Positions 22,052 through 43,716 of a stretch of 64,000 nt of DNA are shown here, piece after piece (within the stretch, counting starts at the first letter, position 1; the number at the start of each line of letters is the position of its first letter). The notes beneath the pieces were generated by a model. The model was not told the DNA's origin. It did not search any database and saw only the letters and a program-made list of their open reading frames with translations. Made by a program: the position numbers and the translations under genes. Source of the stretch: a bacterium (lineage in GTDB: Bacteria > Patescibacteriota > Dojkabacteria > SC72); contig JAIORF010000005.1 in NCBI GenBank assembly GCA_021108295.1, positions 8,531 through 72,530 on the forward strand. Reading direction: 5' to 3'.

Positions 22052-22055
22052 ACTT

Positions 22056-24788: not shown

Positions 24789-24948
24789 CTATACTTTCTT
24801 AAGTTTTGCTAACTAAATAGTAGTACACTATATACTGTATACAATACCACTAAACAGATACTAGACGCAAGAGAATATATACTAGGAAAGAATTTACGTA
24901 ACATCGCTCTGTTGGATAAAAAAGTTTATGGGAATTATCGAAGAATAT
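24789..24948 (-). promoter_or_regulatory. Twin copy of the conserved upstream/promoter block (see 11136..11290).
   Basis: Near-identical to 11136..11285. Confidence 0.4.
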
Positions 24949-24966
24949 TATAGTTAAATTGATTGG

Positions 24967-25806
24967 TTATTCCAATCGTTTTTTGATCTTCTTTTCTTTG
25001 AAATGGTTTCTTTTTGATATGACACTCTTTCCAAGTTCTTTCTCTGTTTCCTTGCGGGCTTTTCCTGCAACTCCCCCTCCTCTTTTGGCCACCTTCTTAC
25101 TTTTACTAAAAGTCTCTGGCTTTTCCTTTTTAGATATTTCAGTAGTTACTTTCTCACCAAGCATATTGAAAATGAGCTCCAAGTCTGTCATATGATCTCT
25201 CAAGTTTTCCCTGTCTAATTTCTTCAATTTCTTGTATTGACTTGGTGTAATTCCAAAGGTTGCTTTAGATATCTCTGCTGTTAGAATTGCGTAGTCTTTC
25301 TTACTCTCTATTCCTCTTTTGTGCCACTCGTCTGTTAGATTTTGCCTAATTGCAATTCCTCTTACCCGTTTATTAATCCAGTCTTTAGGGTACCCTTTCT
25401 GTTCATAGATCCTTTTCATCCTTTCTTGAGCTAATTCAGGATTCTCTATCTCTTGTATCCTCTCATAACCTACCTTGGCTAGCCATCGTTTAAAGGGTTC
25501 TGCTTTTTTAGAAGGAATTGATTGAATTATACGAAATATCCCTTCGGTATTGGCACAATCTGTCTCACGCATTTTGCCATCCAGTGCTTGTAATTTCAAT
25601 CCGTGACAAAATGTCACGACTTCAGTACTTTCCTTATTCAAGCGCTGTTTTAACTTTCGCCAATAAGATCCTGCATCAACACTTTCTGTTAATACCTCGC
25701 ACACATCCACAACAGAAAACCACCATTCGTTGTTATGGATAATCTTACGAATTTCTTTCTTCTGAAAAATTGATATCTTTGTTGTAATTGATTTGTCTTT
25801 TGACAT
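24967..25806 (-). CDS. BRO-N domain protein (phage antirepressor / Bro family) with a basic C-terminal tail.
   Basis: N-terminus FQKKEIRKIIHNNEWWFSVVDVCEVL matches the BRO-N pattern (...IR.I...GEPWFVAKDVCEVLG). The middle region resembles the antirepressor C-terminal part. The C-terminus is Lys/Arg-rich. Confidence 0.7.
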   Translation of the reverse strand: MSKDKSITTKISIFQKKEIRKIIHNNEWWFSVVDVCEVLTESVDAGSYWRKLKQRLNKESTEVVTFCHGLKLQALDGKMRETDCANTEGIFRIIQSIPSKKAEPFKRWLAKVGYERIQEIENPELAQERMKRIYEQKGYPKDWINKRVRGIAIRQNLTDEWHKRGIESKKDYAILTAEISKATFGITPSQYKKLKKLDRENLRDHMTDLELIFNMLGEKVTTEISKKEKPETFSKSKKVAKRGGGVAGKARKETEKELGKSVISKRNHFKEKKIKKRLE

Positions 25807-25940
25807 ACTAAAAGGGTTTGTATTATTACCCTATACAATATCATCCAATGGATGGAGAATACAAGGGAAATGGGAGGCAGTTAATGAAAGAATATTAGGG
25901 AACAGAGATTCTTTGTTCCCTAATATTATAGTGTCTCTAT

Positions 25941-28900
25941 CTATTCTTCACAAAACTCAACTCTTCCTAACTCACAGAGTGCTTGTTCCATTGCATTCAT
26001 CTCAGAATCTTTCTCATCAAGTCTATCTTCTATACCACTTACCCTTTCAACCAGTGCAACAAAGTCCTCATCCTCACTTAAATCACCTAGCTCATCTATT
26101 CGTACCTCTAAGCTAGCTACTGAGTCACCTAACTCTTCAATGGAGAGAGTTTGGTCTGTAAATCCATTAACTTTCTCGTCCAGTTCTTGTACTGCGTTAA
26201 TAAGGGGGACTATGAAGGTTGAGTAACTTAGAGAGTAGAAATCATCTCCACTCTGAGGTCTATTCAAACCACTAAACTCAACACCCTCAAGTGCTGCTTC
26301 TACCTCTTGTGCAATGAGGCCGGTATATTCAGTACCTGTGTTACCCTCTTTGTAATTAAAGGTAACAGGGTTTAGCTTGTTGATAAACTCAAGACCTAGA
26401 ACACTCTCCTCTATATTCTCCTTCAAACGTCTGTCTGATGGATTTGACCATGCTACTTGCCCTTCAATAACAGAAACATTAGTGTCTCCAATTCTCACCT
26501 TATTGTTAGCGTTAACGGTAGCACCATTACCAATGGCTGTAGCGTTAGTAAGACCACTAGTAGAAACATCAGCCTCATAGCCAAGAGCTGTATTGTTACT
26601 TCCGGTGGTGTTTGTATCCATTGCGTATCTACCCATTGCAACATTACCACTCCCTGAATTGTTAGCTAATAAAGCGCTCCACCCTACCGCAACATTGCTA
26701 TCTCCGCTTGAATTAACCAGCAATGTAGAGTGCCCAAGAGCTGTATTTCTCTGTCCTGAGTTAGCACTTGCCGTAGTGCTTCCTCTCAATGCTTCATACC
26801 CAACGGCTGTATTATAAGTGGACTGTCCTGATGTTCTATTATCTGCATAGTACATTGCACCATATCCTACTGCTGTACTTTCACTATTTGCTACATTATT
26901 ACGAAGAGCATTCACTCCATTAGCTGTGTTGGAGCCTCCTGTAGAGTTGAGATAGAGAGAATTTACACCATTAGCTGTGTTGAAGTATCCTGTGGTGTTA
27001 ACACGGAGAGCATCATTACCATTAGCTGTGTTGTAGCTTCCTGTGGTGTTAGCGTAGAGAGCACTATCCCCAACTGCAGTGTTGCGTTGACCTGTATTAT
27101 TAGCAGCTGTACCACTTCCTCTTAATGCTTCATAACCAACAGCTGTATTATATGTATCTCTTCCTGCTATACGACTATCTGCATAGTACATTGCGCCGTA
27201 TCCCATTGCTGTACTTCTACTGTTGGCTACATTGGAGTTGAGAGCATACATACCACTAGCTGTGTTGTAGCCTCCTGTGGTGTTGGAATAGAGAGAAAAG
27301 TAACCACTGGCTGTATTGCGACTCCCCGTGGTATTATTTTCAAGCGACTCAGAGCCATTGGCCGTATTAAAACTTCCTGAATTATTATTATAAAGTGCAG
27401 TAAGACCAGTAGCTGTATTATGGTACCCGGAAACATTTGAATAAAGTGCTCCACGCCCATTAGCTGTGTTAGCATAACCTGTAGTATTAGCATTTCCCGC
27501 CCCGATACCTACGAATGTATTTAATTGTCCATCAGCTCCCGCTGTATGAGATAGATTGGTTCCACCATCTCCTATGACTAAAGATCCAGTAAAACTCGTT
27601 TGATCAGGAAGATAAACAACCTGAGTACTATTAATACCTATCTTCCTATCAATGACTGACGAACTCCCAACAATTTCCAATCTAAAATTTGGAGTAGCTG
27701 TCCCTATCCCCACCCTATCCGTTGAACCGTCAGTGAAGAAAAGATGAGTTTCATTATCACCTTCTACTCGAAAATCAGTTTGAGTTCCTCCTTCGTTAAT
27801 AGCTATCTCACTACTACTAAATTGAGCATCTATCATCGCTCGACCACCAGTAAATAGCTGCCAACGATCCGGACTAAAATATGTATGAGTATTAGCATCT
27901 CCATTATGGTAGATATAGTCATTAATACCAACATCACCAGCCACTTCCAATTTATAAATCGGTAAAACAGGAGTATCAATCCCCACATTACCACTCGTGT
28001 CAATTATTAACCGATTAGCAACAGCTGTCTGATCACTAATATAAAAAATTCCGTTGTTGTGTGAATTTATACTCCACTCCCTACCTCCACCAGTATTTGT
28101 TATAGCAATTTTTAAACTCCCGTCTCCCTCAACACCAGAAAGATGAAGCGGATAATTAGGACTTGTTGTCCCAATTCCTACATCACCATTCTGTAGAAAT
28201 GTCATAAGGGCAGATCCTATATCATTGTTATGTCCCACATCTACCCCACTAGCTATATCCATACGATAGTTTTCTCCAGCATCTCGTCCTATTAGTGCCC
28301 AGCCTTGATCAACCACCGCTTCAGAACCAAATTTTATCACTGCTTCGGAATTGGCATTTGTCACACTTAAAAAAGCATCATATGTAAAACCATAAAACTC
28401 AAGCTCACTATCATCACTGTTTGCAGTTACTTCAAGAGCATGCCCTAAATTCTGTGCTGAAACCTCTATCGCAGCTGTTGGTGAGTTTGTCCCAACACCC
28501 AACCTATCACTACTATTATCCCAGAACAAATTAGTATTCGCTTCTGTAACTGTACTACCCGTTGTGAAAAGAACTGATCCTGCTGTATATCCAGAAGGTG
28601 TATCTGTAAGACCTAGGAAAGTTGTAGCTCCTACTCCTCCCGTATCTATTGCACACGCCCACGCCGAACCATTCCATTTCATTATTTCTCCACTTGCACA
28701 TCCGTTCTGTCCTATATCACCCAAAAGAATACTAGATGTTAAGTTAAGCTTTGAGTAAGCAATTGATGCTGTATCAGAAATATCCACATTTGCTATTGTC
28801 CCATCCTCTATTTTAAGTGAAGTTACTACACCATCAAAAAGTTTTGATGTAGTTATTGCTCCGTCTTTTATCTTCACAGAGGTCACACTACTACTACCCA

Positions 28901-29519
28901 AGTGCTGAGTGAGAACTACTGCATCTTGAAGTTTACCTGAGGAAATTGAACCATCAAGTATCTTTACTGTTGTTACACTTCCATTTGCTAGTTTCTCAGT
29001 TGTTACTGCACCATTTGCTAACTTCACTGTTATCACGCTTCCATCCTCTATCTCAGTTGAACCACCATCATCTGTTGTAGTCCCTTCTGCTTCTTCTAGC
29101 TTTACAATTCTATCTACAAACACCTTTGCTAACTTCTCCTCAGTAATACTCCCATCTTCAACCTCAATTTCAGTCGGTGCATATTCTGTTACTGTACCCT
29201 CTATTATCTCACCATCTGCTGTTTCTAACTGAAGATTCCCCGAAGGCATTCCATCTGCTATGTTTCCACTCACCATCTTTGCTGTAGTCGTAGTTCCATC
29301 TGGAAGCTCTATCTCTACCGAAGTAAACACATCTTCTGCCAGTTTGTCGTAGGAAATAGATCCTTCCTCTAACTCTCCTCCTCGGAGTTCTTCCAATTCA
29401 ACCTGTTGCTTACTATTGTGGATTACTTGAACAGTGGTAGCACCGACCAAGCCAACTGCCATAACTATTAGGAATACTACACTTGCGAAACCTTTGAAAT
29501 ATGATTTGTGATTGGGCAT
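25941..29519 (-). CDS. Large secreted/anchored modular fibre-like protein (1192 aa) with an N-terminal signal-anchor, 11-residue KIxDGxIxxxKL repeats, NTAxG fibre repeats and a C-terminal intramolecular-chaperone (S74-like) domain.
   Basis: MPNHKSYFKGFASVVFLIVMAVGLVGA. Repeats ITTEKLANGSVTTVKILDGSISSGKLQD.... Module TTFLGLTDTPSGYTAGSVLFTTGSTVTEANTNLFWDN shared with other giant genes. C-terminus SDRRLKENIEESVLGLEFINKLNPVTFNYKEGNTGTEYTGLIAQEVEAALEGVEF. DNA at 26170..26470 is about 90% identical to 11440..11740. Confidence 0.85.
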   Translation of the reverse strand: MPNHKSYFKGFASVVFLIVMAVGLVGATTVQVIHNSKQQVELEELRGGELEEGSISYDKLAEDVFTSVEIELPDGTTTTAKMVSGNIADGMPSGNLQLETADGEIIEGTVTEYAPTEIEVEDGSITEEKLAKVFVDRIVKLEEAEGTTTDDGGSTEIEDGSVITVKLANGAVTTEKLANGSVTTVKILDGSISSGKLQDAVVLTQHLGSSSVTSVKIKDGAITTSKLFDGVVTSLKIEDGTIANVDISDTASIAYSKLNLTSSILLGDIGQNGCASGEIMKWNGSAWACAIDTGGVGATTFLGLTDTPSGYTAGSVLFTTGSTVTEANTNLFWDNSSDRLGVGTNSPTAAIEVSAQNLGHALEVTANSDDSELEFYGFTYDAFLSVTNANSEAVIKFGSEAVVDQGWALIGRDAGENYRMDIASGVDVGHNNDIGSALMTFLQNGDVGIGTTSPNYPLHLSGVEGDGSLKIAITNTGGGREWSINSHNNGIFYISDQTAVANRLIIDTSGNVGIDTPVLPIYKLEVAGDVGINDYIYHNGDANTHTYFSPDRWQLFTGGRAMIDAQFSSSEIAINEGGTQTDFRVEGDNETHLFFTDGSTDRVGIGTATPNFRLEIVGSSSVIDRKIGINSTQVVYLPDQTSFTGSLVIGDGGTNLSHTAGADGQLNTFVGIGAGNANTTGYANTANGRGALYSNVSGYHNTATGLTALYNNNSGSFNTANGSESLENNTTGSRNTASGYFSLYSNTTGGYNTASGMYALNSNVANSRSTAMGYGAMYYADSRIAGRDTYNTAVGYEALRGSGTAANNTGQRNTAVGDSALYANTTGSYNTANGNDALRVNTTGYFNTANGVNSLYLNSTGGSNTANGVNALRNNVANSESTAVGYGAMYYADNRTSGQSTYNTAVGYEALRGSTTASANSGQRNTALGHSTLLVNSSGDSNVAVGWSALLANNSGSGNVAMGRYAMDTNTTGSNNTALGYEADVSTSGLTNATAIGNGATVNANNKVRIGDTNVSVIEGQVAWSNPSDRRLKENIEESVLGLEFINKLNPVTFNYKEGNTGTEYTGLIAQEVEAALEGVEFSGLNRPQSGDDFYSLSYSTFIVPLINAVQELDEKVNGFTDQTLSIEELGDSVASLEVRIDELGDLSEDEDFVALVERVSGIEDRLDEKDSEMNAMEQALCELGRVEFCEE

Positions 29520-29606: not shown

Positions 29607-30314
29607 TTATTGCTGTAGAGTCGCATCTCGGAAGGTAAACCCTTCCTGTTTTATAAACACAAACTCAAAAATCTCCTTCTCTATTTCATCCCCTCTTTGC
29701 CAAAAGTAAGTGACTATTGTTTTGTACTCCTCACCATCCCTATCCACCTCTCTACTAACCTGCACCTCTATTGGACCACTCAATCCTTCATCAGTATGAC
29801 TATCCCTCCAACTATTCTTAACTGCTAGATATTCATCTTCTGTATACTCTTCCTTTTGTTCTGCCTCTAGATACTGATACAGAATCCTGTACTTCCTAAA
29901 CCTCTCGGCATCTTCAATCTGACGTGAGAACTCAAGTACACTACTCTCAATACCTATATCTATACTCTTTCTCTTCTTCACTGGTATTCTCACCTCTTCA
30001 AAGAAATCACTCCCTACAAGAACTAGAGTGTCATCATCCCAAACTTCTAGACTAAACTCCCCCCTCTCGTCTGTCTTTGTATCTGTCTCTCCATCTATTA
30101 GACTGTTTACCTCTACTCCTTTCAATGGGCTATCTGTCTCTAAATCATATACTCTACCTTCCACCGTTATTCTCTCTGCAGGTATTTCCCTGTTGATATA
30201 TTTAAAGAGAAGGAATATGGATAGGGCGATTACACCAAGAATGAGAACTATACGAAAGATCTTATTGTTCCAGAGAAGTCTTAGTATTGATGTCCTTTTC
30301 TTTTTACGTATCAT
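29607..30314 (-). CDS. Hypothetical membrane-anchored protein with a carboxypeptidase-regulatory-like (prealbumin fold) domain.
   Basis: N-terminal TM IVLILGVIALSIFLLF, then ITVEGRVYDLETDSPLKGVEVNSLIDGETDTKTDERGEFSLEV (pattern GxVxDxxTxxPLxGxxV...TDxxGxFxL). Its start abuts the stop of the upstream gene (30314/30317). Confidence 0.55.
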   Translation of the reverse strand: MIRKKKRTSILRLLWNNKIFRIVLILGVIALSIFLLFKYINREIPAERITVEGRVYDLETDSPLKGVEVNSLIDGETDTKTDERGEFSLEVWDDDTLVLVGSDFFEEVRIPVKKRKSIDIGIESSVLEFSRQIEDAERFRKYRILYQYLEAEQKEEYTEDEYLAVKNSWRDSHTDEGLSGPIEVQVSREVDRDGEEYKTIVTYFWQRGDEIEKEIFEFVFIKQEGFTFRDATLQQ

Positions 30315-30316
30315 CT

Positions 30317-32521
30317 TTATTGTTGTTTTCTAAGTTTATCCCACTTTCTATATTGCCAAATATTGATGATAATGAGGATAACTACAATTATCCAGAACCA
30401 CCAAGGTATTAGTTGTTTACGCACTATTTCAAACTCTCCCATCCACTTCTCATCCACAATTTCCTTACCACCTTTTGTAGAAACTGCATATACATCATGT
30501 ACTCCCTCTGGAAGGATATTAGCTGCTCGTATTTGCCACTTACCTTCATCATCTGATGTAGTCATCAGGATGAGTGGGTCAGATTTAATCATGATAGCGA
30601 CCATCATATTTGGTTCTGCTTCTCCCTCGAAGATAATTTCATCACCTTCTATCTTTATTCTCACCGTTATATCCCCTACTATCTGACCATTGATCTCAGA
30701 GAGTGATACGGATTCTAGACCAGAAGCAGACGGCAATATTATCTTCGCACTTGTACATATCAGCTCCCCTATTCTCTGAATCTCCTCTGCTGGTAAGGTG
30801 ATAATTTCTGCGTCAATTTCTGGACACTCTTCACACTCCTCACATTCTTCACAGGTTGGACAGGTCTCACAAATTGGACAGTCTGCAGGCTCTGTAGTTC
30901 CTACTGCTAGACCGTATGAGACTTGGTCCATAGAGTTACTAGCTAAGTCACTCACATTGATAATGACCTCAAGAGCGTAGTAAAGATCTATGTCATCATC
31001 GGGGTTGATTGTAATAAAGTAGTCAGAAGAATCTCCAGAGTATGAGAATGGATGTACTCCTGCTCTAGTATATGTCACTCCATCTACTATGATTGATAGA
31101 CTATCTATATCTACCCCTGTACCATCATCTGTACAGTGGAAAGTAATATCATCAGAAATTGCCATAGATACAGAATTCCTCTCTGGAGTATACAAACTAC
31201 ACTCAGGAGCAACAGTATCTGCAGTTGTGAAAGAGTAAGAGGTATTTAGGGTATTGATGGTTGGTAGTCCGTAGTCGTCTACAGTGATACTCACACTCAC
31301 AAGGGTATTCTCTGGAAAGTCGGTTGTTGGATTGATACTAATATTGTAATCATACACATTTCCATAGTCATTGTTTCCTAGTACCGTCACTGTCATTTCT
31401 AAATCTGCACTGTCGTACACAAAAGTCCCCCAAGCTGGTGCAGAGATAGTTACACTCAAGGTAGAGATATCAACACCAGTACCCGGATAGCCTCCTGGTA
31501 CAGCAAGATCTCTTACATTGAAATTAACATTGGTAACTGTAGATACCCCACTCTGTCCATTGTTAGGATTACGATTGTAAACGGAAGGTGCATCATTATC
31601 ATCTTCAACTGTAAAGGTGTATGTATGGTTTGAAAGCGTATGAACAGTAGGTACTCCTAAATCGGAGATGGTAATATCAACCGTCATGACTTCAGTGTAG
31701 TAGAAGTTGTTGGCTGGATTAATGACTACATCACAGTAGTCTACCCTGTTAGCATTTGTAGTATGGCAATTGTACGACACTCCCGCACTTACTTCAGTGT
31801 AATTAACAGTCCCCCAATTAGCACCAGAAACACTCACTTCCAGAGTGCTAATATCTACACCAGCATCTCCATCGTTAAGTCTAAACTCAATATTGTCATT
31901 AGCGGCCACATCAACTGCACCATCATCAGGATCACGATCACTTACAGTGGGAGTATCAGCGTCTGCCAGCAACGATACGGTGTAGTCATCTGCCTGTTCC
32001 AAGATATCATTCCCTGTACCATACTCAGCTAAATTACAATCAGTAGTTACCCCAGGAGTGAAATCGTAGTCCCAATCGTAGTTACCACTATCCGACAAAA
32101 CCGTAAAGTAGAAATATGCGAAAGTACCAGTACCATTGTAAGAGTTCCCTGGATTGTTGTAAGAACCTAGCTTAATCTGAGTAGCAGATACAATATTGTT
32201 GGTATAGTTGTTGTACTGAGAACCAGTATATATAGAGGTAGCAGCAGTAGAACAATTGCTCTGTACAATCTCAACTAAAGTATTGTCGTAATCAATAACC
32301 AAGTCAGCACCACCCGTATTATGACCATCTGTATCAAGTACAACATTAGCTCGTACACACCTACCTCTATAGAATTCATTATTCAATCCTCCCTGTCCCT
32401 GAGGAATATCAAAAGTAAAAGAAGTTGCAGCTTGTACAACAGAAGGAACTGCTAGAAACACAAAAGCTATCCCAACGAATATGAATATTTGAACTACCCT
32501 TCTATACATACTATTTATCAT
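30317..32521 (-). CDS. Surface protein with a signal peptide, a candidate cohesin-like N-terminal module, three Ig-like repeats, a Cys-rich CxxC/EEC stalk and a C-terminal TM anchor. The ORF is open to 32557; the start is probably an internal Met.
   Basis: FIFVGIAFVFLAVPSVVQA is a signal peptide. ANVVLDTDGHNTGGADLVIDYDNTLVEIVQ ... GTFAYFYFTVLSD resembles the cohesin signature (..F.L.YDp.vLe.v). Three repeats of P.V..R.P..G...V.....I.F.....G.GVDI.TL.V.. are Big/SbsA-like. Then CPICETCPTCEECEECEECPE and the C-terminal LIPWWFWIIVVILIIINIW anchor. Confidence 0.6.
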   Translation of the reverse strand: MINSMYRRVVQIFIFVGIAFVFLAVPSVVQAATSFTFDIPQGQGGLNNEFYRGRCVRANVVLDTDGHNTGGADLVIDYDNTLVEIVQSNCSTAATSIYTGSQYNNYTNNIVSATQIKLGSYNNPGNSYNGTGTFAYFYFTVLSDSGNYDWDYDFTPGVTTDCNLAEYGTGNDILEQADDYTVSLLADADTPTVSDRDPDDGAVDVAANDNIEFRLNDGDAGVDISTLEVSVSGANWGTVNYTEVSAGVSYNCHTTNANRVDYCDVVINPANNFYYTEVMTVDITISDLGVPTVHTLSNHTYTFTVEDDNDAPSVYNRNPNNGQSGVSTVTNVNFNVRDLAVPGGYPGTGVDISTLSVTISAPAWGTFVYDSADLEMTVTVLGNNDYGNVYDYNISINPTTDFPENTLVSVSITVDDYGLPTINTLNTSYSFTTADTVAPECSLYTPERNSVSMAISDDITFHCTDDGTGVDIDSLSIIVDGVTYTRAGVHPFSYSGDSSDYFITINPDDDIDLYYALEVIINVSDLASNSMDQVSYGLAVGTTEPADCPICETCPTCEECEECEECPEIDAEIITLPAEEIQRIGELICTSAKIILPSASGLESVSLSEINGQIVGDITVRIKIEGDEIIFEGEAEPNMMVAIMIKSDPLILMTTSDDEGKWQIRAANILPEGVHDVYAVSTKGGKEIVDEKWMGEFEIVRKQLIPWWFWIIVVILIIINIWQYRKWDKLRKQQ

Positions 32522-32537
32522 ATCACTTTGTCTAATT

Positions 32538-33314
32538 TTAATCTCCATCTGTTCCATAGTTATTAATTAATTTCGTCATATCCAAAGAATTGACCTGGTG
32601 GTTTTCATCAACATCAGCTCGCTCATCAGAAACACCAGCATCGTTTTCTCCCCAATGCGAAACTAGATATGTTGCATCCAAAGAGTTCACTTGATTGTCC
32701 CCATCAGGGATTGTACCACTAGTATATACATCACCACATAAGAGAGGATCTGCACCAGCTAAGGTAAAATCTAAAACATTTGCACCCTCTACCAAAGATT
32801 GGGCTGACAACATCTTCTTCAAATGGGCATAGCCCTTTACTACTACATCGTAAGTCCCAGGAGGGATACCAGTTAACAAAAGGTTTGAGTACTCTCCATC
32901 ATTGTTAGTAGCTACAGCTGCATAGGTTTGTAAAGCTGTTGTCTCTCCCACATTTCTAATTTCAATAATTGCTAGGGTAGAGTTATTACCAACCGCAGGA
33001 AGACGCTTTTCAGGGATTACAGTAAAGTCAATAAGGACATCCCCAGCATCTCCGTACAGATATCCGTGTAAAATATTGAAGTTAGCACTATCAGACTCAC
33101 CAATAGCCAAGTCTCCAACCTGCTGATTCTCAATCTCGTAACCTGCAGAAGAAGAGTCCTCTCCCCCACTGTTCCCCGCATTATCCGGTTCAATTGTATA
33201 GTTAGTAGAGGAAGTTGCTCTTACTTCACCCTGTAATGTAATCCCCAACAAGAGAACTACAATGGGTAAAGAGATATAGATTGCTACTTTTTTAGATATA
33301 GGCAGTTTCCCCAT
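32538..33314 (-). CDS. Secreted protein with a C-terminal dockerin-like tandem Ca-binding module. Start at Met 33314 (MGKLPISKK...).
   Basis: Signal peptide VAIYISLPIVVLLLGITLQG. The C-terminus has two EF-hand-like segments, IPDGDNQVNSLDATYLVSHWG and DVDENHQVNSLDMTKLINNYG. The second fits the dockerin loop D1-x-(N/D)3-x-(D/N)5-x-x-x-N9-x-x-D12 followed by an L..Y helix. Compare GDVNDDGKVNSTDAVALKRYVL. Confidence 0.6.
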   Translation of the reverse strand: MGKLPISKKVAIYISLPIVVLLLGITLQGEVRATSSTNYTIEPDNAGNSGGEDSSSAGYEIENQQVGDLAIGESDSANFNILHGYLYGDAGDVLIDFTVIPEKRLPAVGNNSTLAIIEIRNVGETTALQTYAAVATNNDGEYSNLLLTGIPPGTYDVVVKGYAHLKKMLSAQSLVEGANVLDFTLAGADPLLCGDVYTSGTIPDGDNQVNSLDATYLVSHWGENDAGVSDERADVDENHQVNSLDMTKLINNYGTDGD

Positions 33315-34057: not shown

Positions 34058-34516
34058 CTATAACCTAACTTCCAAACCTAAGTCTATTTCTTCAAAGCCT
34101 TCTTTTTTATAAAACCCAATAGCACCGCTGTTTTGCCAGTATGCAGTCACATACATCTTAGTAGCTCCCTCGGTTTTAGACCATTCTTTAGCTTTCTCTA
34201 CAAGGATATGCCCTATTCCCTGAGATCTATATTGGGGCAGAACTCCCATATTCTCTAATTCCACGAACTTACCCTTTCTATAACCAAAATCTTTAAAACC
34301 CAATGCTATATATCCGACTGCTTCCCCATCTACTTCTGCAATAAAACTTTTTCCATAACTTCCATCTGCTAATTCCTTGTAATATTTAACCCCAACTTCA
34401 GAGAAGGGCCATTCCAGATCTAGATCTTTATCGAACTCTTTGTCGTGGATAAAAACTTCATTATTGAGAGATTGGAGGACTTTCCAATCATTAAGATTGG
34501 TTTCCTGAATATTCAT
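34058..34516 (-). CDS. GNAT family N-acetyltransferase.
   Basis: Acetyl-CoA binding motif VLPQYRSQGIGHILVEKAKEW (Q/R-x-x-G-x-G/A) and GNAT fold length (152 aa). Confidence 0.8.
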   Translation of the reverse strand: MNIQETNLNDWKVLQSLNNEVFIHDKEFDKDLDLEWPFSEVGVKYYKELADGSYGKSFIAEVDGEAVGYIALGFKDFGYRKGKFVELENMGVLPQYRSQGIGHILVEKAKEWSKTEGATKMYVTAYWQNSGAIGFYKKEGFEEIDLGLEVRL

Positions 34517-34679: not shown

Positions 34680-37199
34680 CTAAAACCCCATTGGAGGGAA
34701 ACCACCACTCTTTGGTGCAGGTTTAACCTCTTTGTCTAGATCTGCTCTTCTCTTAATATCAGCATTAACCACATTAACATCCCTACCATACTTAGTCCTA
34801 GAAAGATTCTTAATAAGAGCAGAAGCCTCCTTATTAACCGTCATATCAAACCCTGACATAGGGAACTCACTACCATACAAAGTATTAAGAGAAAACGGAC
34901 CAGGATAGTTACCATTGCTAAGCATCTTCGCATAGTAATGACCCAAACCCTGATTAATCAAATCCCCAGCGGTAAGTATAGGGTCAAACTGAGGCTCTAA
35001 GAACTGACCATCCTCCGCACTACACCTTGAGATAAAGAGAGAACCCACATTACCAAATACAGCATCCTTAATGTTTTCTGGTAACTGCCCAATATACTGA
35101 TGAGCCATAGTCAAATTCAAACGATACTTCCTAGCTTCAGACAATATCGAACAAAAATCATCCGTTGCAAAATTCTGAAACTCATCAGCATAGAAAAAGA
35201 AATCCTTCCTCTGACCCTCCTCCACATCCTGCCTACTAAGTGCTGCTGCCAACATCTTCTGTACTAACAGAAGCCCCACAAAAGACATATTCTCCTCACC
35301 AAGAACTCCCTTAGAAAGATTTATGATAAGGATTTTTTGGTTATCCATTACATCTCTAAAATCAAAAGAGGATTTAGACTGACCAATGATATTCCTAATA
35401 GCTAAGTTGGTAGTAAACTTATCGAATTTGGAAATAAAGTAACCCAAACTCTCAGCCTTAGTCTTCTGATCGGTCTTAGCCACCTGATCTACCCAATATC
35501 TCTTTACCAACTCATCCTTGATGATAGGCAACCACTTATCCTTAACCCATTGCTCATCCTGTAAGACACGCACCACTTCGATAAGGGTAGAACCCTCCTC
35601 AGACATAACGGTAAGCATAGAATTACGTACAGCCTGTTGCATCATAGGACCAACAAACCCCTGATTATTCGGATCAAACATACGTAGAAGTAATGCAATA
35701 AAACTATTCACAATCTGATGCTTATGCTGCTCATTGTAATACTCCATAATATTTAGACCAAAAGGCCTATCAAAATCCCCGGCATTGAAATATATGACAT
35801 CCTCTACCCTCTCAGGAGGAATCCTCTCTAAAACCATCTCTGCAGTCTCACCGTGAGGATCGATAAAACAAACACCGTCACCATTGTAAATATCCTGCAC
35901 TATCATCCTAGTTAGAAGCCAAGACTTACCAGTACCTGTCTGACCAAGAATATATGAATGCCTCCTCCTATCAACCCTATTAAAACAAACCCTCTGCACC
36001 TTCCCCCTATACTCATTATTCCCCATCCATATCGTATCTATACTATCGATATCTTGACTAATCTCATTAGAAGCAGGTATCGCTCTAGAAAGTAGCCAAT
36101 GAATATTGGGAGTAGTGATCTCCTTGTTGGGGAAATGATACAGTGCTGCAAGCTCTTCAATATTTAACACAGTCTTACAATCTAGAGGAGTTCTCCTGTA
36201 GATAACATCATTCATAAAATCTTTTTCATCTTTCTTCTTAACCTTCTTCTTCTTCAGCTTATTAATCCCTGGATTACTAAACTGACTAAACGCACCTACA
36301 ATATTATCCAAATGCATCTTAGCTAATTCTTTACTCGGAGCACTAGCTACAATACGGATATCTGTAAGAAAACCAACCTTAGATATCTTCTTACTAATAT
36401 CCTGCATCTTCTCCTGAGACACCTCTATACGCTTCTTCTCAGGATCCGCATTATTAGACTCCACCTTACTCACAAACTTCTCACCATTCTTTCTCCACTT
36501 ACTACCTGCAGGAGACATCACTATCTGAATCATTGCACCCTCTCCATCTGACATCTTACTCATAGTGCTTAGGATATTTGAAAGAGGATCACCTTGAAAA
36601 TCTTCAGCAACTCTAATAGGGCAATAGTTGTCCTCCTCTAACTCCAACCTTGTATATTCTACATGCGTATTTTCATCAAATATATTGTAATCATTCACCT
36701 GCTTAACATCAGCATCTTGATATGATCCTAATATCTGCTTTTCTACTAACTCAGATAAATTCTTAGGACAGTGTACATAGAAACGTAACTCTCCGGGTAC
36801 AGCCATTATCTCAAAACTAATAGCATTGTTTACAGTAAAGTTCTCGGCTAAACCTTTCCCCCTACCCCCTATACTTGCTAAATTAGCAAACATCTTCTCA
36901 GCCTCCCCTATCTCTATCTCATTCACTCTAGGGACTCTTACTTCATAGAGTGTCCACTTCTTAGCTTTTTCATCTCTATCTTTCTTCTCAAGTTTCTTCT
37001 TAAGAACAAAGAAGAGAGCTATTAACATACCAAGGAACAGAAATACAAAGATTATCCATCCCCATGGAATATTTATATCATTAACATTGTAAGAATCTCT
37101 GGAATACTCAGTCTGTACACCTGGTAAAACAACATCAGAAGAAGGCGTAGGTCCCACCTGTGCAATTATTTCATCTTTAAGAAAATATTCTATACTCAT
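34680..37199 (-). CDS. T4SS-type P-loop ATPase, VirD4/TraG/TrwB-like coupling-protein family (VirB4 not excluded), with an N-terminal TM segment.
   Basis: TM WIIFVFLFLGMLIALFFVL. Walker A ILGQTGTGKSWLL is followed by FIDPHGE (DPxGE motif of VirB4/VirD4). Walker B/C-terminal motifs FFFYADEFQNF ... EARKYRLNLTMAHQYIGQL ... FGNVGSLFISR parallel the TraG/VirD4 LDEF..ARKYG..TQS..QL signatures. Confidence 0.65.
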   Translation of the reverse strand: MSIEYFLKDEIIAQVGPTPSSDVVLPGVQTEYSRDSYNVNDINIPWGWIIFVFLFLGMLIALFFVLKKKLEKKDRDEKAKKWTLYEVRVPRVNEIEIGEAEKMFANLASIGGRGKGLAENFTVNNAISFEIMAVPGELRFYVHCPKNLSELVEKQILGSYQDADVKQVNDYNIFDENTHVEYTRLELEEDNYCPIRVAEDFQGDPLSNILSTMSKMSDGEGAMIQIVMSPAGSKWRKNGEKFVSKVESNNADPEKKRIEVSQEKMQDISKKISKVGFLTDIRIVASAPSKELAKMHLDNIVGAFSQFSNPGINKLKKKKVKKKDEKDFMNDVIYRRTPLDCKTVLNIEELAALYHFPNKEITTPNIHWLLSRAIPASNEISQDIDSIDTIWMGNNEYRGKVQRVCFNRVDRRRHSYILGQTGTGKSWLLTRMIVQDIYNGDGVCFIDPHGETAEMVLERIPPERVEDVIYFNAGDFDRPFGLNIMEYYNEQHKHQIVNSFIALLLRMFDPNNQGFVGPMMQQAVRNSMLTVMSEEGSTLIEVVRVLQDEQWVKDKWLPIIKDELVKRYWVDQVAKTDQKTKAESLGYFISKFDKFTTNLAIRNIIGQSKSSFDFRDVMDNQKILIINLSKGVLGEENMSFVGLLLVQKMLAAALSRQDVEEGQRKDFFFYADEFQNFATDDFCSILSEARKYRLNLTMAHQYIGQLPENIKDAVFGNVGSLFISRCSAEDGQFLEPQFDPILTAGDLINQGLGHYYAKMLSNGNYPGPFSLNTLYGSEFPMSGFDMTVNKEASALIKNLSRTKYGRDVNVVNADIKRRADLDKEVKPAPKSGGFPPMGF

Positions 37200-37253
37200 A
37201 TTGAGTACAGTTTAGCATAGAAAATGGAAGTTGAGAATTTTATTTATACAAGA

Positions 37254-37577
37254 CTAATTATTACAAAAGGAATAACCAAATGGTACTGCTCCTTCTGATT
37301 TCTCCTTTACTAACCCAGAAAATGTTGTCTCTGTTACAGGGTCGTCGAGATCCTTCTGAGAAACTAAAGTCTCACTTACTGGTATATTTGCTTGAGCAAT
37401 AGCACTAGCACCACTTGCAATCTTTGGAGTTTGCGTATTCTCACCTACTTCAGCAGTTTTAGTAGGAACTACTCCTACACCCTCTAAACTTGAAGGTACT
37501 TCTACTTGAATAGGCTCTTGATTTGTTTCTATTGTATTTGGATCCATAGGAGCAGTCATCCTATTTAAATTACTCAT
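37254..37577 (-). CDS. Hypothetical small protein, low complexity.
   Basis: 107-aa ORF starting 11 nt downstream of the smpB stop. No recognisable motifs. Confidence 0.35.
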   Translation of the reverse strand: MSNLNRMTAPMDPNTIETNQEPIQVEVPSSLEGVGVVPTKTAEVGENTQTPKIASGASAIAQANIPVSETLVSQKDLDDPVTETTFSGLVKEKSEGAVPFGYSFCNN

Positions 37578-37588
37578 AACCTATAACA

Positions 37589-38032
37589 TTATACCATATA
37601 CTTTCTCTTCACTCTAGCCATATCCCTCTTTACATCCCTATCCTTCTCTACATTCTTCTTCTCATGTTTCCTCTTACCCTTCCCCAATCCTACTTGAACC
37701 TTAATAAGATTTCTAGTGGTATATACACTAACCGGTATTAAAGCTAACCTTCCCTGCTTAAGCTTGACCTCCAACTGATCTATTTCCCTTCTCTTCACAA
37801 GCAACCGTCTACTCCTAGCACTATCATAGTCAGGATTACCATCATACTTATACCTAGCAATATCTGCATTGACTAGCCATAATTGGTTATCAATAATCTT
37901 AACGTAAGCATCAGAAAGATTGCACCTACCGCCCCTGATAGACTTAACCTCTGCGCCAGTCAACACAATACCAGCCTCAAAGGTGTCCTTAATCTCATAA
38001 TTGAAATATGCTTTCTTATTAGTAATTTTCAT
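37589..38032 (-). CDS. smpB: SsrA-binding protein SmpB.
   Basis: Canonical SmpB sequence: KKAYFNYEIKDTFEAGIVLTGAEVKSIRGGRCNLSDAYV...DGNPDYDSARSRRLLVKRREI...GLGKGKRKHEKK. Confidence 0.9.
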   Translation of the reverse strand: MKITNKKAYFNYEIKDTFEAGIVLTGAEVKSIRGGRCNLSDAYVKIIDNQLWLVNADIARYKYDGNPDYDSARSRRLLVKRREIDQLEVKLKQGRLALIPVSVYTTRNLIKVQVGLGKGKRKHEKKNVEKDRDVKRDMARVKRKYMV

Positions 38033-38043
38033 ACACGATTATA

Positions 38044-40218
38044 CTACAAACCCATTCTCCATACATTATTACCATCAAGAATATACATATACTCCTCACT
38101 CCTGTCGATAACAATATCCTTCACATCACTCCACATATCTTCATCTGGACCCCTATACACATACTGATTAAGAAGAACTAACTGATCAGGATGCAATTTA
38201 TCATTATATGAGTCTCTCGGCTTTTCAAACCTTAAAATCCTCCTATTCGTACTATCAAACACATACAAACCAAATTCCTGATTTACAGTAGTATCACCAC
38301 AACACAAATCCCCAAGTTCTCCCTCTACACCAAGTATCTCAACTGGTCTAGGATCACCCGCAGTATATCTCAATATTCCACTATTCCCAGACGCAAGGGC
38401 ATAGATACTGAAATCTGCAAAAAAATCAGTAGTACCTACAAGCCCAGAATCCTCTACGGACTTTACAGTACTACTACTATACCCAGAACCATAGTTGACA
38501 CTCTTTGATATCTTCCCATTCACATTATCAAGATAGTAGAGGTTATCACCATAGACACCAAACTCAGCAACCATATCTATCTTAATATTCCCAATACCAG
38601 CCCCTATTATCCTCCTAAAAGACCTCCAGCCAGAATCCTGCTTAGAAGCCTTCACTACGCCAGACTGTGCATCAAAAATATAGATACTGGAATCCTCCCC
38701 AATGTCTACAAACATAGGCTCTTTTAAAAGCCCTTCATCATCTACTAGCTTCTCTTTCTTCTTTTCGAAAATTGATACACGATATACTTCACCTCTCCCC
38801 TTATCAGTAACTATCAATATCTCATTACCCGAATCATCGAGGATATATTTTATATCCATAAATTCAGAATTGTCCTCAAAAAAGCCAACCAAAGACTCTG
38901 GTGTAACTTCCACCCTCTTATACAAACTGTCCTCTACTCCCAAGGCTTCTTCCTCAAGGGTATGTAATCTGTCAATATATTCCTGATCTATACCATCAGG
39001 GACTTCAGAAAGAAGAGTGTTCACAGAGAACAGTATTACCTCAGCACCATCCCTATCTGTACTCAACTTCTCTTTAGCAATATCCAACTTACTCTCAGCC
39101 TCTTCAAACTTCTCTTCTGCTAAAACATGCAAATCTCTTAATTCTTTCTGTTTCCTTGTATATTGATAACCTCCTACTAGAAGTATGACAGCGAAGGTTG
39201 CCAATATCACTATCTTAAACCTTTTAATCTTCACATTCTTAACCTTGTACCCATCTATCCTCATATTAATTCTCTTACCGCTTCTCAGCCTCTTTTCAGA
39301 GACCTTTGCAGTATACTTCTTAAACCACGTCTTGTTACCAAACTTCTTAACTACCAATATATTTACCTTAGAAAAGGACTTCTTAAAGATTCCCACAATA
39401 TCACTACACTTCTTACTAAGAAAACTGTATCCCTTTTGGAATAGGGTAATAGCTTTTGTAATATATTTCTTAACCCCAATCTTCTTTACTTCAGGCTTAA
39501 TCTCCTTAGGTAAAATTACAGGAGAAACACTCTCTACACTCTTAGGGGTATTCTCTTTCACTACTGGTTCAGATTCTATCTTTATATCTCCCTCTGTATG
39601 AAGACACAACATTCCTTGGTCTGGAAGAAGAGTCTTACCCAACAAGTTTAATCCTTTCAATATCTCCCCTTTATCACCCTTCCCTACCAATACATGCATA
39701 TTTTCAGTAAGTAGAGACGATGTAGATACTACAACAAGGTCTTCGCTGTCTATAGAGAAGCCAGCTGTCTGAGCACTACTCTTTTCTAAAACATCTATAA
39801 TATTTACAATCTTTCCACCCTTGTAAACAAATATCTCGTTCTCCCCAAGGTTGGCAATATATACCCCTTCTTTGGTAGGAGCTATGATGACAAGACTAAT
39901 ATCTATCCCCCTCTGTTCCAAGCTCTTACTGTTACGCATCAATTCTTTTAATCTTCGTGTAAATTCTACAGTTGCTGCTTTAAGTGACTCTGAAATAGAT
40001 TTTGTACTAGAGTACATATAGCCTTCAACTACACCGTCCCAAGCCATATGGGCAACTCTCTCTGCTGGGAAATCTTGTTCACTTGATATCTCTAAAAGAG
40101 CATATAGTTCTCCCTCTTTTATAGATTTAACCCCTGAAGTCTTTACATATCTAAATACTCCAACAAAGGAGTTTCCTTTCTCACTATTCCTAATATATTT
40201 TACTGAAGTAACTGACAT
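38044..40218 (-). CDS. Hypothetical bitopic membrane protein (724 aa). The C-terminal half has four hYhhD blade-like repeats (beta-propeller-like).
   Basis: Central TM FKIVILATFAVILLVGGYQY. C-terminal repeats IYIFD, LYYLD, LYVFD and MYILD are spaced like propeller blades. No catalytic motif recognised. Confidence 0.55.
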   Translation of the reverse strand: MSVTSVKYIRNSEKGNSFVGVFRYVKTSGVKSIKEGELYALLEISSEQDFPAERVAHMAWDGVVEGYMYSSTKSISESLKAATVEFTRRLKELMRNSKSLEQRGIDISLVIIAPTKEGVYIANLGENEIFVYKGGKIVNIIDVLEKSSAQTAGFSIDSEDLVVVSTSSLLTENMHVLVGKGDKGEILKGLNLLGKTLLPDQGMLCLHTEGDIKIESEPVVKENTPKSVESVSPVILPKEIKPEVKKIGVKKYITKAITLFQKGYSFLSKKCSDIVGIFKKSFSKVNILVVKKFGNKTWFKKYTAKVSEKRLRSGKRINMRIDGYKVKNVKIKRFKIVILATFAVILLVGGYQYTRKQKELRDLHVLAEEKFEEAESKLDIAKEKLSTDRDGAEVILFSVNTLLSEVPDGIDQEYIDRLHTLEEEALGVEDSLYKRVEVTPESLVGFFEDNSEFMDIKYILDDSGNEILIVTDKGRGEVYRVSIFEKKKEKLVDDEGLLKEPMFVDIGEDSSIYIFDAQSGVVKASKQDSGWRSFRRIIGAGIGNIKIDMVAEFGVYGDNLYYLDNVNGKISKSVNYGSGYSSSTVKSVEDSGLVGTTDFFADFSIYALASGNSGILRYTAGDPRPVEILGVEGELGDLCCGDTTVNQEFGLYVFDSTNRRILRFEKPRDSYNDKLHPDQLVLLNQYVYRGPDEDMWSDVKDIVIDRSEEYMYILDGNNVWRMGL

Positions 40219-40227
40219 ACAACTACT

Positions 40228-40482
40228 TTAGAGTAGAATTAATATGAATGCTAATATCCCACCTCCTATAGATACAAAGATATTCAGCATTATCATTTGT
40301 TTTGTAATATCATTCTTAGCAACATGGAGAGTATCTCTAAGTACTCTAACCTTAAGGATGAGCATAAAGGCGTAGAAGATAATGGCAAAGAGTAAAATCC
40401 CTACAAAGAGTTTCATTGCCCCATCAGCGAATGAAAAACCTGGGTTAAAGTCAGTGTACATACTTGTATATTCAATATCCAT
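40228..40482 (-). CDS. Small membrane protein (84 aa, two TM segments).
   Basis: Hydrophobic segments LFVGILLFAIIFYAFMLIL and IFVSIGGGILAFILILL. Confidence 0.45.
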   Translation of the reverse strand: MDIEYTSMYTDFNPGFSFADGAMKLFVGILLFAIIFYAFMLILKVRVLRDTLHVAKNDITKQMIMLNIFVSIGGGILAFILILL

Positions 40483-40491
40483 ATTTCCTCC

Positions 40492-41118: not shown

Positions 41119-41210
41119 AGTATATATTAAGATATCACAGAACTAGCTTCAGGACAAGGAATTAAGGGGTACTAATATGCACTTTAAAAGCCTTCGTGGC
41201 CTCCTATTCT

Positions 41211-43061: not shown

Positions 43062-43073
43062 TACACAATTATC

Positions 43074-43442: not shown

Positions 43443-43443
43443 C

Positions 43444-43716
43444 TTATATTCCAATATTTAATTGATCTACTACAAACTTCACCAAAAGCGGAGCAACAAA
43501 CACTATTACCAAACCAATCAATGCAAACATTAAAGACTTAGTTGCACTCTGTATCTTGTCCTCATCACCCATTGCAAAGATATATTTGAAACCAGAAATG
43601 ATTAGAGCCACAACAGCAAGTAATACAGACAAACCTATTGCATAATTCAAAACATATTGAATAAAGGCTTCAAGGTTCTCATACGTTGTTGGATTAGTAA
43701 CAATACTAAAGTCCAT
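43444..43716 (-). CDS. TrbC/VirB2-like pilin-family protein, paralog 2.
   Basis: IISGFKYIFAMGDEDKIQSATKSLMFALIGLVIVFV flanked by TM helices. Confidence 0.7.
   Translation of the reverse strand: MDFSIVTNPTTYENLEAFIQYVLNYAIGLSVLLAVVALIISGFKYIFAMGDEDKIQSATKSLMFALIGLVIVFVAPLLVKFVVDQLNIGI

Follow-up and report, generated by a model that had tools for sequence, protein, structure and literature searches.

Two neighboring genes of a CPR/Patescibacteria bacterium raise the question of whether a cohesin and a dockerin can form a surface docking pair outside cellulose degradation and, if so, what such a pair would hold at the cell surface. They lie in a 64-kb window (the whole stretch of DNA analyzed, 64,000 nucleotides), where the first-pass annotation proposed a secreted protein of 258 aa with a dockerin tail next to a membrane-anchored scaffold of 734 aa that begins with a cohesin. 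The open reading frame (ORF) listing of the window confirms that both ORFs are on the minus strand and adjacent (Table 1). The dockerin ORF extends upstream to a TTG at 33353, with the ATG at 33314 favored by the homologs; the scaffold has alternative ATGs at 32548 and 32557, giving 743 and 746 aa, both of which overlap the last codons of the dockerin gene, and the 'MEIKIR' of this upstream in-frame start region is also present in locus L001. The two genes abut or overlap, which is an operon structure. Exactly one cohesin and one dockerin are present in the 64 kb, and the related loci likewise contain one of each. Among related genomes, the closest are CPR MAGs, including one named Candidatus Moraniibacteriota, and a search for phage relatives found none, indicating that the pair is not viral.

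Table 1. Features of the cohesin-dockerin locus and its neighbors (window coordinates)
Feature	Position	Strand	Description and basis
Dockerin protein gene	32538..33314	-	258 aa from ATG; ORF list and family alignment
Signal peptide of dockerin protein	33216..33314	-	Residues 1-33 (…LQGEVRA/TSS); read from sequence
N-terminal segment	33039..33215	-	Residues 34-92; three S-x-N-Y/F-x-I/L motifs; PamT-like (NCBIfam NF058579)
Beta-sandwich	32751..33038	-	Residues 93-188; transthyretin/CarboxypepD_reg-like; AlphaFold
Dockerin module	32541..32744	-	Residues 191-258; Pfam Dockerin_1, PDB profile search, family conservation
Dockerin loop 1	32676..32711	-	IPDGDNQVNSLD; atypical, insertion after 'GDV'
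Dockerin loop 2	32580..32615	-	DVDENHQVNSLD; canonical
Cohesin scaffold gene	30317..32557	-	734 aa from ATG 32521 (30317..32521)
Signal peptide of scaffold	32429..32521	-	Directly ahead of cohesin
Cohesin	31949..32428	-	Residues 32-191 of the 734-aa protein; PF00963, PDB profile search, AlphaFold and Foldseek
Three Ig-like repeats	30887..31963	-	Residues about 187-545; first is Big_5
Acidic (CxxC)n run	30824..30880	-	CPICETCPTCEECEECEEC; seven Cys, residues 548-566
Membrane-proximal Ig-like domain (Big_13-like)	30476..30631	-	Residues 631-682; Pfam Big_13 E = 0.0017-0.0026, below gathering score
C-terminal transmembrane helix	30350..30412	-	LIPWWFWIIVVILIIINIWQY; read from sequence; followed by basic tail RKWDKLRKQQ
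235-aa gene	29607..30314	-	N-terminal membrane helix and CarboxypepD_reg-like domain (Pfam matches below cut-off)
Four giant fiber genes	2619..29519	-	YadA_head repeats; three with Peptidase_S74 chaperone domain; Bro-N gene inside array

As judged from profile matches and family conservation, the 258-aa protein carries a genuine C-terminal dockerin. This part of the first-pass annotation is borne out by Pfam Dockerin_1 (PF00404), which matches residues 204 to 251 in a scan of the whole protein (E = 2.3e-7, 31.3 bits against a gathering score of 22.9) and scores 36.5 bits on the module by itself. Most of the 38 homologs found also contain PF00404, and the family profile, searched against the PDB, matches dockerins only (best 1ohz_B, E = 2.1e-5), with type I dockerins as the best sequence matches. 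The dockerin pattern consists of two tandem segments of ~22 residues, each with a 12-residue EF-hand-like Ca loop (D1, D/N3, D/N5, N/D9, D12) and a helix. Two tandem type I loops had been claimed: loop 2 fits the pattern exactly, is conserved, and is the only match to its strict form, but loop 1 departs from it, with an Ile in place of an acidic residue at position 1 (positions 3, 5, 9, and 12 are kept) and an insertion, as seen from the usual 'GDV' lying 7 residues upstream; in the family alignment, 3 to 7 residues are inserted after this conserved 'GDV'. Across 37 aligned homologs, the Ca-ligand positions are invariant or nearly so, both dockerin helices are strongly conserved, and the module as a whole is unusually well conserved, with 78% mean column identity. 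In the AlphaFold model of the whole protein, made from a shallow family alignment and with no Ca in the model, residues 190 to 258 have a pLDDT of about 35 to 47 and form no helices.

The 734-aa protein is tipped by what both profile searches and structure prediction identify as one real cohesin, located immediately after the signal peptide as had been proposed. Pfam Cohesin (PF00963) is missing from a scan of the full-length scaffold, the cut-off being passed only by residues 32 to 187 alone (E = 3.2e-7, 31.1 bits against a gathering score of 24.1); the same domain is matched by 21 of the 38 cohesin-family members, and a close homolog (P0001) was preannotated with it. Searched against the PDB, the cohesin profile retrieves almost only cohesins, the best being the type II cohesin 3l8q_A (E = 1.5e-8). 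The AlphaFold model is confident and all-beta (pLDDT 95.3, pTM 0.89), with no helix detected by DSSP, and its best 50 Foldseek matches in the PDB are all cohesins (probability of 1.00, query-normalized TM scores of 0.52 to 0.72), led by another type II cohesin, 5k39_A; the N-terminal fold is thus predicted to be the cohesin beta-sandwich, a flattened jelly roll of nine strands. There are 523 relatives in the representative library, many of them small, single-domain, and membrane tethered. Toward the C terminus, beyond the part that aligns with known cohesins, the family has a motif of its own, TPGxTTDxNxAE..DIL, that hardly varies.

The remainder of the scaffold would form a stalk. Three Ig-like repeats had been described, and the first is a Big_5 domain above the Pfam cut-off (residues 187 to 304, E = 2.7e-5, 25.3 bits against 23.6), but repeats 2 and 3 are faint by HMM and are seen by eye through a common motif, D.D.P…G(T/A)GVDIS(T/S)L. 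The CxxC stretch and the C-terminal membrane anchor of the same description both hold: of 11 complete orthologs, 10 have at least three CxxC repeats in the corresponding position, and all complete orthologs end in a hydrophobic helix with a Lys/Arg-rich tail. The scaffold C terminus has no LPXTG motif. The orthologs are 740 to 898 aa long and have an identical domain layout.

The cargo of the dockerin is noncatalytic, comprising a peptide and a beta-sandwich of ~160 residues in total. Homologs have a hydrophobic N terminus ending in V-x-A just ahead of a conserved ISSxNY, and the segment that follows is highly conserved in the family and modeled by AlphaFold with low confidence. The mature segment alone matches positions 28 to 77 of the 241 in NF058579, the PamT profile (E = 2.1e-7), and the whole protein scores 35.7 bits against an equivalog cut-off of 240, over positions 9 to 79 only. 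The beta-sandwich, directly N-terminal to the dockerin, is modeled with seven strands (pLDDT 80 to 94), matches Pfam CarboxypepD_reg below the cut-off (E = 0.002 to 0.009), and gives weak Foldseek matches to 2b59_B, 4wi0_B, 5g5d_B, and 5aq0_B; those to XDoc chains are weak (E of 4e-3 to 3e-2) and on par with transthyretin-like domains. Neither protein has a catalytic or carbohydrate-binding domain.

Pairing of the two genes is conserved well beyond the window. Among loci collected starting from either partner, the dockerin gene adjoins the cohesin gene in every one with enough flanking DNA, which makes about 17 different genomic and metagenomic loci (the window, L001 to L012, L015, L016, L020 to L022, L024, and L025). 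The arrangement is kept at dockerin-protein identities down to 34% (L024), after inversion or rearrangement (L002), and where there are no fiber genes nearby (L025). Such strict adjacency in about 17 divergent loci is independent support for two modules that work together, although what adjacency demonstrates is functional linkage, not direct contact. Giant fibers similar to those of the window adjoin the pair in L001, L004, L005/L006, and L016; sequence and Pfam scans found no dockerin or cohesin module in the giant fibers of the window, leaving the suggestion that the cohesin displays the neighboring fibers unsupported.

These two genes probably code for a dedicated, noncellulosomal, one-to-one cohesin-dockerin docking cassette, in which the partner is displayed at the tip of a stalk. 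Both proteins would be exported by their signal peptides, and the C-terminal helix would keep the scaffold in the cytoplasmic membrane with its basic tail inside. The stalk would then reach outward through one Ig-like domain, the acidic (CxxC)n linker, and the three Ig-like repeats, presenting the single cohesin at its far end. There, the cohesin would hold the mature ~225-aa partner noncovalently through its C-terminal, presumably Ca-dependent dockerin, thereby placing the beta-sandwich and the PamT-like N-terminal peptide at the stalk tip. The assembly is likely to display at the cell surface a tip that acts in adhesion or as an adaptor, and to be part of a CPR cell-contact apparatus, which may also include the fibers encoded next door.

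Other readings of the pair differ in how much of this they would accept. Dockerin_1 and Cohesin are the defining modules of cellulosomes, and the dockerin-like protein and 'cellulosome anchoring protein' of SR1 genomes have been interpreted as possible breakdown of complex carbon (Kantor et al. 2013, PMC3812714), but a cellulosome-like polysaccharide-degrading complex is almost certainly not what is encoded here because there are no enzymes: a glycoside hydrolase, lyase, esterase, or CBM was found in neither the two proteins nor the operon, and the dockerin is borne by a small noncatalytic cargo and not by a carbohydrate-active enzyme. Cellulosomal scaffoldins have several cohesins and usually a CBM, whereas the 64 kb encode just one cohesin and one dockerin, and the cellulosome is effectively refuted at this locus. 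It is highly improbable that docking has been lost altogether, leaving two independent proteins, one with a Ca-binding stabilizer as its tail and the other with a generic beta-sandwich tip. The atypical loop 1, the tail left unfolded by AlphaFold (pLDDT of about 40), and the cohesin family's own C-terminal motif would all fit such a loss, but the strong conservation of the putative Ca ligands and of both helices argues against it, and independent proteins are not expected to remain adjacent through rearrangements. Both modules could instead be genuine without being mutual partners, the cohesin serving as a general post for dockerins encoded elsewhere, or the dockerin using another cohesin, with adjacency reflecting coregulation only. 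Cellulosomal systems are typically many-to-one, the search covered 64 kb of the genome, and the cohesin family is large and rich in small, membrane-tethered members, so CPR genomes may hold several cohesins. This reading is nonetheless rather unlikely, given that the adjacency is strict across wide divergence and survives rearrangement, that cohesin and dockerin each occur exactly once per locus, and that the dockerin is conserved beside a conserved cohesin, as expected of a fixed pair.

The recently described Pam pilus of CPR, with its proposed tip protein PamT and a proposed membrane-anchored terminator, PamR, that has an N-terminal inserting strand, offers a further reading (Troman et al. 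2026, bioRxiv 10.64898/2026.03.03.709456). The pair would be a split PamR analog, a membrane anchor or filament adaptor made of two detachable pieces: the PamT-like peptide would join a pilin or fiber subunit by beta-strand complementation, and cohesin-dockerin docking would tie the filament to the stalk. Consistent with this are the PamR proposal itself, the tail-fiber-like genes colocated with pam operons (Troman et al. 2026, 10.64898/2026.03.03.709456), and the N-terminal segment, with its match to the PamT profile, its three alternating S-x-N-Y-x-I motifs, and its lack of a fold in the AlphaFold model. Locus L002 points the same way; there, the dockerin gene and a genuine Pam pilin gene (78.7 bits for NF058581 against 55) are divergent, and the gene after the pilin gene encodes a protein that has both a signal peptide and a membrane helix at its C terminus. 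However, searches of the window and the other loci detected a Pam pilin in L002 only, and the L002 dockerin protein is without the PamT-like segment. The Pam pilin C domain (NF058581), readily detected in the L002 pilin, has no match in either protein of the window, the PamT match is far under the family cut-off and lies in a region of PamT without a described role, and an acceptor domain was seen in no fiber protein. A filament anchor is therefore quite improbable, but if true, it would mean that ultrasmall bacteria couple cohesin-dockerin docking with assembly of the donor-strand type in the apparatus by which they contact hosts, and it would connect two surface-assembly principles in CPR.

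The proposed docking cassette resembles several known systems in part. Type II cohesin/X-dockerin pairs (Clostridium thermocellum CipA XDoc with SdbA/OlpB; A. cellulolyticus ScaB; PDB 2b59, 5k39, 3l8q, and 4u3s) likewise combine a surface-anchored single cohesin with a dockerin directly after a beta-sandwich, and in both cases the purpose would be anchoring to the cell, not enzyme integration. Type II cohesins are also the best profile and Foldseek matches of this cohesin, and the X modules are weakly matched by this beta-sandwich. Here, however, the anchor is a C-terminal membrane helix rather than SLH domains or a sortase, the cargo is small and noncatalytic rather than an enzyme-loaded scaffoldin, the dockerin is closest to type I dockerins, and the host is a CPR bacterium. 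Type II cohesins have a helix between strands 6 and 7, plus beta-flaps, whereas the model of this cohesin lacks the hallmark helix. In function, the nearest parallel to a dedicated 'anchor plus tip' pair is found in Ruminococcus flavefaciens, where ScaE, a single-cohesin, sortase-anchored cell wall protein, binds the X-dockerin of CttA and so puts this nonenzymatic surface adhesin on display. ScaE also binds the ScaB scaffoldin and is hence part of a cellulosome, and CttA binds cellulose; unlike the pair described here, ScaE/CttA is not known to have an Ig stalk or a (CxxC)n linker, or to be encoded as a fixed operon of two genes in this way.

Cohesins also act as connectors outside cellulose degradation, as proposed here, in Archaeoglobus fulgidus (2xdh) and in the GH84/GH33 toxin complexes of Clostridium perfringens (2jh2, 2ozn, 2vo8, and 2w1n). 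These noncellulosomal structures are among the fold and profile matches of this cohesin, at only 11 to 16% identity, but their modules are on enzymes or on the same polypeptides, whereas here they belong to a membrane stalk and to a small adaptor, the genes for which are conserved side by side in CPR genomes. Both the Pam pilus and the proposed cassette would be surface assemblies that are specific to CPR, rely on Sec export, and have no outer-membrane machine. PamR and the scaffold are alike in build, with several beta-sandwich domains in a row and a membrane helix at the C terminus, PamT has an N-terminal segment like that of the dockerin protein (at a score far below the PamT cut-off), and the L002 pair is beside a Pam pilin gene, but Pam subunits are assembled through donor-strand exchange rather than through docking of a dockerin on a cohesin.

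CPR/Patescibacteria live attached to other cells, and few of their surface structures have been characterized at the molecular level. In a cultivated Saccharibacterium, one protein with a dockerin domain is essential. Dockerin and 'cellulosome-anchoring' annotations in CPR have been taken to indicate polysaccharide use (Kantor et al. 2013, PMC3812714, on SR1), and the locus described here gives a cleaner picture, with a membrane-anchored cohesin stalk and a small dockerin protein in a conserved operon, often beside giant fibers of a host-recognition type, and no enzymes. Both binding modules are small, soluble portions of their proteins, which makes the docking hypothesis directly testable, and the pair could supply orthogonal cohesin-dockerin pairs for protein engineering.

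The 235-aa gene is co-oriented with the scaffold gene, and its start overlaps the scaffold stop. In L001 and L002, but in none of the other loci, an ortholog comes after the scaffold gene, making the 235-aa gene an accessory member of the cassette in this subclade only.

The window encodes a cohesin-dockerin pair in adjoining genes, one for a secreted dockerin-tailed protein and one for a membrane-anchored scaffold with a single cohesin, and both modules are almost certainly genuine. The pair forms the start of four tightly packed, co-oriented genes located downstream of an AT-rich intergenic region, the group being completed by a gene for a 235-aa protein and by the first gene of a giant surface fibre array.

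Features of the cohesin-dockerin cassette and its surroundings, with positions in the window
Feature	Position	Strand	Remarks
Dockerin-tailed protein, 258 aa	32538..33314	-	ORF
Segment matching the PamT model	33039..33215	-	N-terminal segment of dockerin protein
Cys193	32736..32738	-	At dockerin start (LLCGDV)
Scaffold protein, 734-746 aa	30317..32521/32557	-	Possible upstream starts overlap 3' end of dockerin gene
TPGxTTDxNxAE..DIL motif	31990..32065	-	About residues 122-146 of cohesin domain
Acidic (CxxC)n run, CPICETCPTCEECEECEEC	30824..30880	-	Scaffold stalk; position conserved in 10/11 complete orthologues
235-aa protein	29607..30314	-	Start overlaps stop of scaffold gene
1192-aa fibre protein		-	Begins 88 bases after 235-aa gene; first of fibre gene array, which runs down to 2619
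Giant surface fibre array, four proteins (2838, 3586, 910, 1192 aa)	2619..29519	-	YadA_head repeats
2838-aa fibre	2619..11135	-	
910-aa fibre	22056..24788	-	
Bro-N domain protein	24967..25806	-	Inside fibre array
Small GNAT-type acetyltransferase	34058..34516	-	Upstream of cassette
T4SS-like gene set	34680..43454	-	VirD4/TraG-like coupling protein (839 aa), unannotated 724-aa protein, SpoIID-domain coiled-coil protein, T4SS pilin (Mbov_0395-family-like)
Two tandem paralogues, ~780 aa	46038..50784	-	Laminin_G_3 (concanavalin-like) domain in each
dnaA and dnaN	61453..63980	-	Window end

The secreted protein is organized in four parts, with a signal peptide, a conserved segment of ~59 residues containing three S-x-N-Y/F-x-I/L motifs, a beta-sandwich (residues 93 to 182), and the dockerin. 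The dockerin, proposed in the first-pass annotation from two tandem calcium-binding loops, is borne out by Pfam, in which Dockerin_1 matches residues 204 to 251 at 31.3 bits in the whole protein (gathering score, 22.9) and at 36.5 bits when the module is scanned alone. Single-sequence searches of the PDB give marginal matches only and profiles are needed; a profile of 13 family modules matches dockerins only, the best being 1ohz_B (C. thermocellum Xyn10B; E=2.1e-5). The strict 12-residue pattern quoted for both loops holds for loop 2, which is canonical in 37 homologues (D234-x-D236-x-N238-x-x-x-N242-x-x-D245, with ligand positions invariant or at least 90% conserved), but not for loop 1, which retains positions 3, 5, 9, and 12 (D204, D206, N210, and D213), is hydrophobic at position 1, and has an insertion, since the usual 'GDV' sits 3 to 7 residues upstream. 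The sequence VNSLD-x-T-x-L occurs in both repeats, which makes the module internally symmetric, and it may have a dual binding mode.

The AlphaFold model of the whole protein, made from a shallow alignment, folds the beta-sandwich alone, with a confident prediction there and a pLDDT below 50 in the N-terminal segment and the dockerin, the latter being unfolded at about 40; the dockerin fold thus rests on sequence evidence. The beta-sandwich has a subthreshold Pfam match to CarboxypepD_reg; its Foldseek matches, to transthyretin-like domains as well as X modules from type II X-dockerin chains, are no more than weak leads, given that the rest of the model is unfolded. Cys193 is the single, nearly invariant cysteine of the secreted protein, and C162 is the only free cysteine of the cohesin that is not conserved. 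A disulfide between the two was considered and dropped, as the more distant locus L002 has the cohesin cysteine and a valine in the dockerin, so there is no covariation.

The cohesin assignment likewise stands, with Cohesin (PF00963) scoring 31.1 bits (cut-off, 24.1) when scaffold residues 32 to 187 are scanned alone. A Pfam scan of the full-length scaffold lists Big_5 and Big_13 and not Cohesin, showing that full-length scans can hide this domain. It is likewise missing from the precomputed orthologue annotations, so that this cohesin family is probably under-annotated in genomes of CPR (Patescibacteria-type ultrasmall) bacteria. An exhaustive HMMER search with the domain recovers 523 representative relatives at E <=1e-3, 21 of 38 aligned family members match Cohesin individually, and the family profile matches almost only cohesin structures in the PDB, with the ScaB type II dyad ranking first (3l8q_A; E=1.5e-8). 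The domain is modeled as an all-beta fold (pLDDT, 95.3; pTM, 0.89), and its best 50 Foldseek matches in the PDB are all cohesins (probability, 1.00; query-normalized TM, 0.52 to 0.72), spanning types I, II, and III as well as noncellulosomal cohesins. A C-terminal motif, TPGxTTDxNxAE..DIL, is near-invariant among family members that share only 25 to 35% identity; this candidate functional site falls beyond the part of the domain that aligns with cohesins of solved structure.

In the remainder of the scaffold, the cohesin is followed by the three Ig-like repeats of the first-pass annotation, which are related; repeat 1 is a Big_5 domain above the cut-off, and repeats 2 and 3 are faint by HMM and share an obvious motif with the first. 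These are followed by an acidic run of seven cysteines with CxxC spacing, which may bind metal or act as an interchain disulfide staple. Beyond it lie a Big_13-like domain and a hydrophobic helix of 21 residues followed by a basic tail; both the CxxC run and the helix with its basic tail recur in orthologues. With this helix at the C terminus and the cohesin at the N terminus, the scaffold is predicted to be a type I membrane protein with its cohesin at the membrane-distal end.

Relative loci from genomes and metagenomes were reached from the scaffold, from homologues of the dockerin protein, and by a metagenome scan, and all were searched with the family HMMs at maximum sensitivity. A cohesin gene adjoins a dockerin gene in every locus with usable flanking DNA (about 17 distinct loci; L013, L017 to L019, and L023 are cut by contig ends and are outside this count), and no locus has more than a single copy of either module. 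The pairing holds down to 34% dockerin-protein identity (L024) and in L025, in which housekeeping genes flank the pair with no fibre nearby; in L002 the dockerin gene has shifted to the opposite side and the opposite strand and is still inside the cassette. A dedicated binding pair would be expected to show such a pattern, which independent functions would hardly explain; the two modules quite probably bind each other, and the full display model, in which the anchored scaffold would present the secreted protein, is reasonably likely. L014, likewise outside the count, has a small acetyltransferase gene between its dockerin gene and the contig end; small GNAT-type acetyltransferase genes recur beside the cassette, both there (L014:1296-1718) and in the window.

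The cassette is not a cellulosome, as neither protein nor the operon has enzymes or CBMs and the window has just one cohesin and one dockerin. Mechanistically, it is closest to the type II cohesin/X-dockerin contacts by which cellulosomes attach to the cell, and it is also close to the ScaE-CttA pair of Ruminococcus flavefaciens, in which a single anchored cohesin displays a nonenzymatic protein; the noncellulosomal cohesins of Archaeoglobus and Clostridium perfringens are among the structural matches of the scaffold cohesin. It differs from these in its C-terminal membrane-helix anchor, an Ig stalk that includes a (CxxC)n linker, its fixed two-gene organization, a small noncatalytic cargo, and its CPR host. 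Assignment to a cohesin/dockerin type fails, with the cohesin matches favoring type II and the model lacking the type II helix, whereas the dockerin matches favor type I. Earlier work touches briefly on dockerin-like and 'cellulosome anchoring' proteins encoded by CPR genomes (Kantor et al. 2013, PMC3812714) and reports a dockerin-domain protein that is essential in Southlakia (Wang et al. 2023); we found no account of the present pair in the literature searched.

The pair could instead be a two-piece anchor for a filament, a reading suggested by the Pam pilus. This CPR filament assembles by donor-strand exchange, with PamT as its proposed tip and PamR as its proposed membrane anchor; PamR is a beta-sandwich chain whose N terminus carries an inserting strand and whose C terminus has a membrane helix (Troman et al. 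2026, 10.64898/2026.03.03.709456). The N-terminal segment of the dockerin protein is recognized by the NCBIfam PamT model (CPR_pilus_PamT), with E=5.7e-9 for the whole protein and E=2.1e-7 for the mature segment scanned alone (profile positions 28 to 77). Homologue P0162 also matches, but the dockerin protein scores far under the family cut-off and has no pilin domain. A profile search with the segment retrieved no matches, its own family included. In L002, a bona fide Pam pilin (NF058581, 78.7 bits versus 55) is encoded divergently from the dockerin gene, and the gene after it, possibly for a membrane-anchored chaperone, encodes a signal peptide and a C-terminal helix (both genes, L002:13718-16237). 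However, searches for Pam pilins in the window and the loci other than L002 found none, and the L002 dockerin protein is the one lacking the PamT-like segment. A filament anchor is improbable, and display of the secreted protein by the scaffold is the preferred reading.

The window is chromosomal, and dnaN and dnaA at its end place the surface-protein island within about 30 to 60 kb of the probable replication origin. CPR-typical genes include those for a VirD4-like coupling protein, a T4SS pilin, SpoIID, and SmpB, and the T4SS-like gene set resembles that described for Patescibacteria. The nearest genomes are metagenome-assembled CPR bacteria, with L001 sharing 88% identity and the same gene order, and L002, from Candidatus Moraniibacteriota, sharing 43% identity. 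A phage origin of the pair was rejected, as neither protein has a tblastn match among 50,697 phage records.

The suggestion that the neighboring fibres are displayed through the cohesin finds no support, as no dockerin or cohesin was found in the fibres or the rest of the window with family HMMs (--max) or a loop regex, nor in the fibres by Pfam scans of C-terminal 300-aa pieces. Three of the four fibres have a C-terminal Peptidase_S74 chaperone domain and terminate in a C-x7/8-C-E(E) motif, and the N terminus of the 2838-aa fibre weakly matches (E=0.0028) the N domain of Bdellovibrio mosaic adhesive trimer fibres. The first ~45 residues of the 910-aa and 2838-aa fibres are near-identical (MDNLPSSKKRILLLVCAFLLLFTIQVQAA.PENLNYQGKLKD), and the 910-aa fibre ends differently, in a Cys-rich tail with no S74 domain, suggesting cassette-like recombination among the fibre genes. 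The array also includes a gene for a protein of the phage-associated Bro-N DNA-binding family. Similar fibres often adjoin the pair (in L001, L004, L005/L006, and L016), and a shared cell-surface role for fibres and pair is plausible. Tail-fibre-like genes are also reported alongside pam operons (Troman et al. 2026, 10.64898/2026.03.03.709456). The tandem Laminin_G_3 paralogues are further surface protein candidates.
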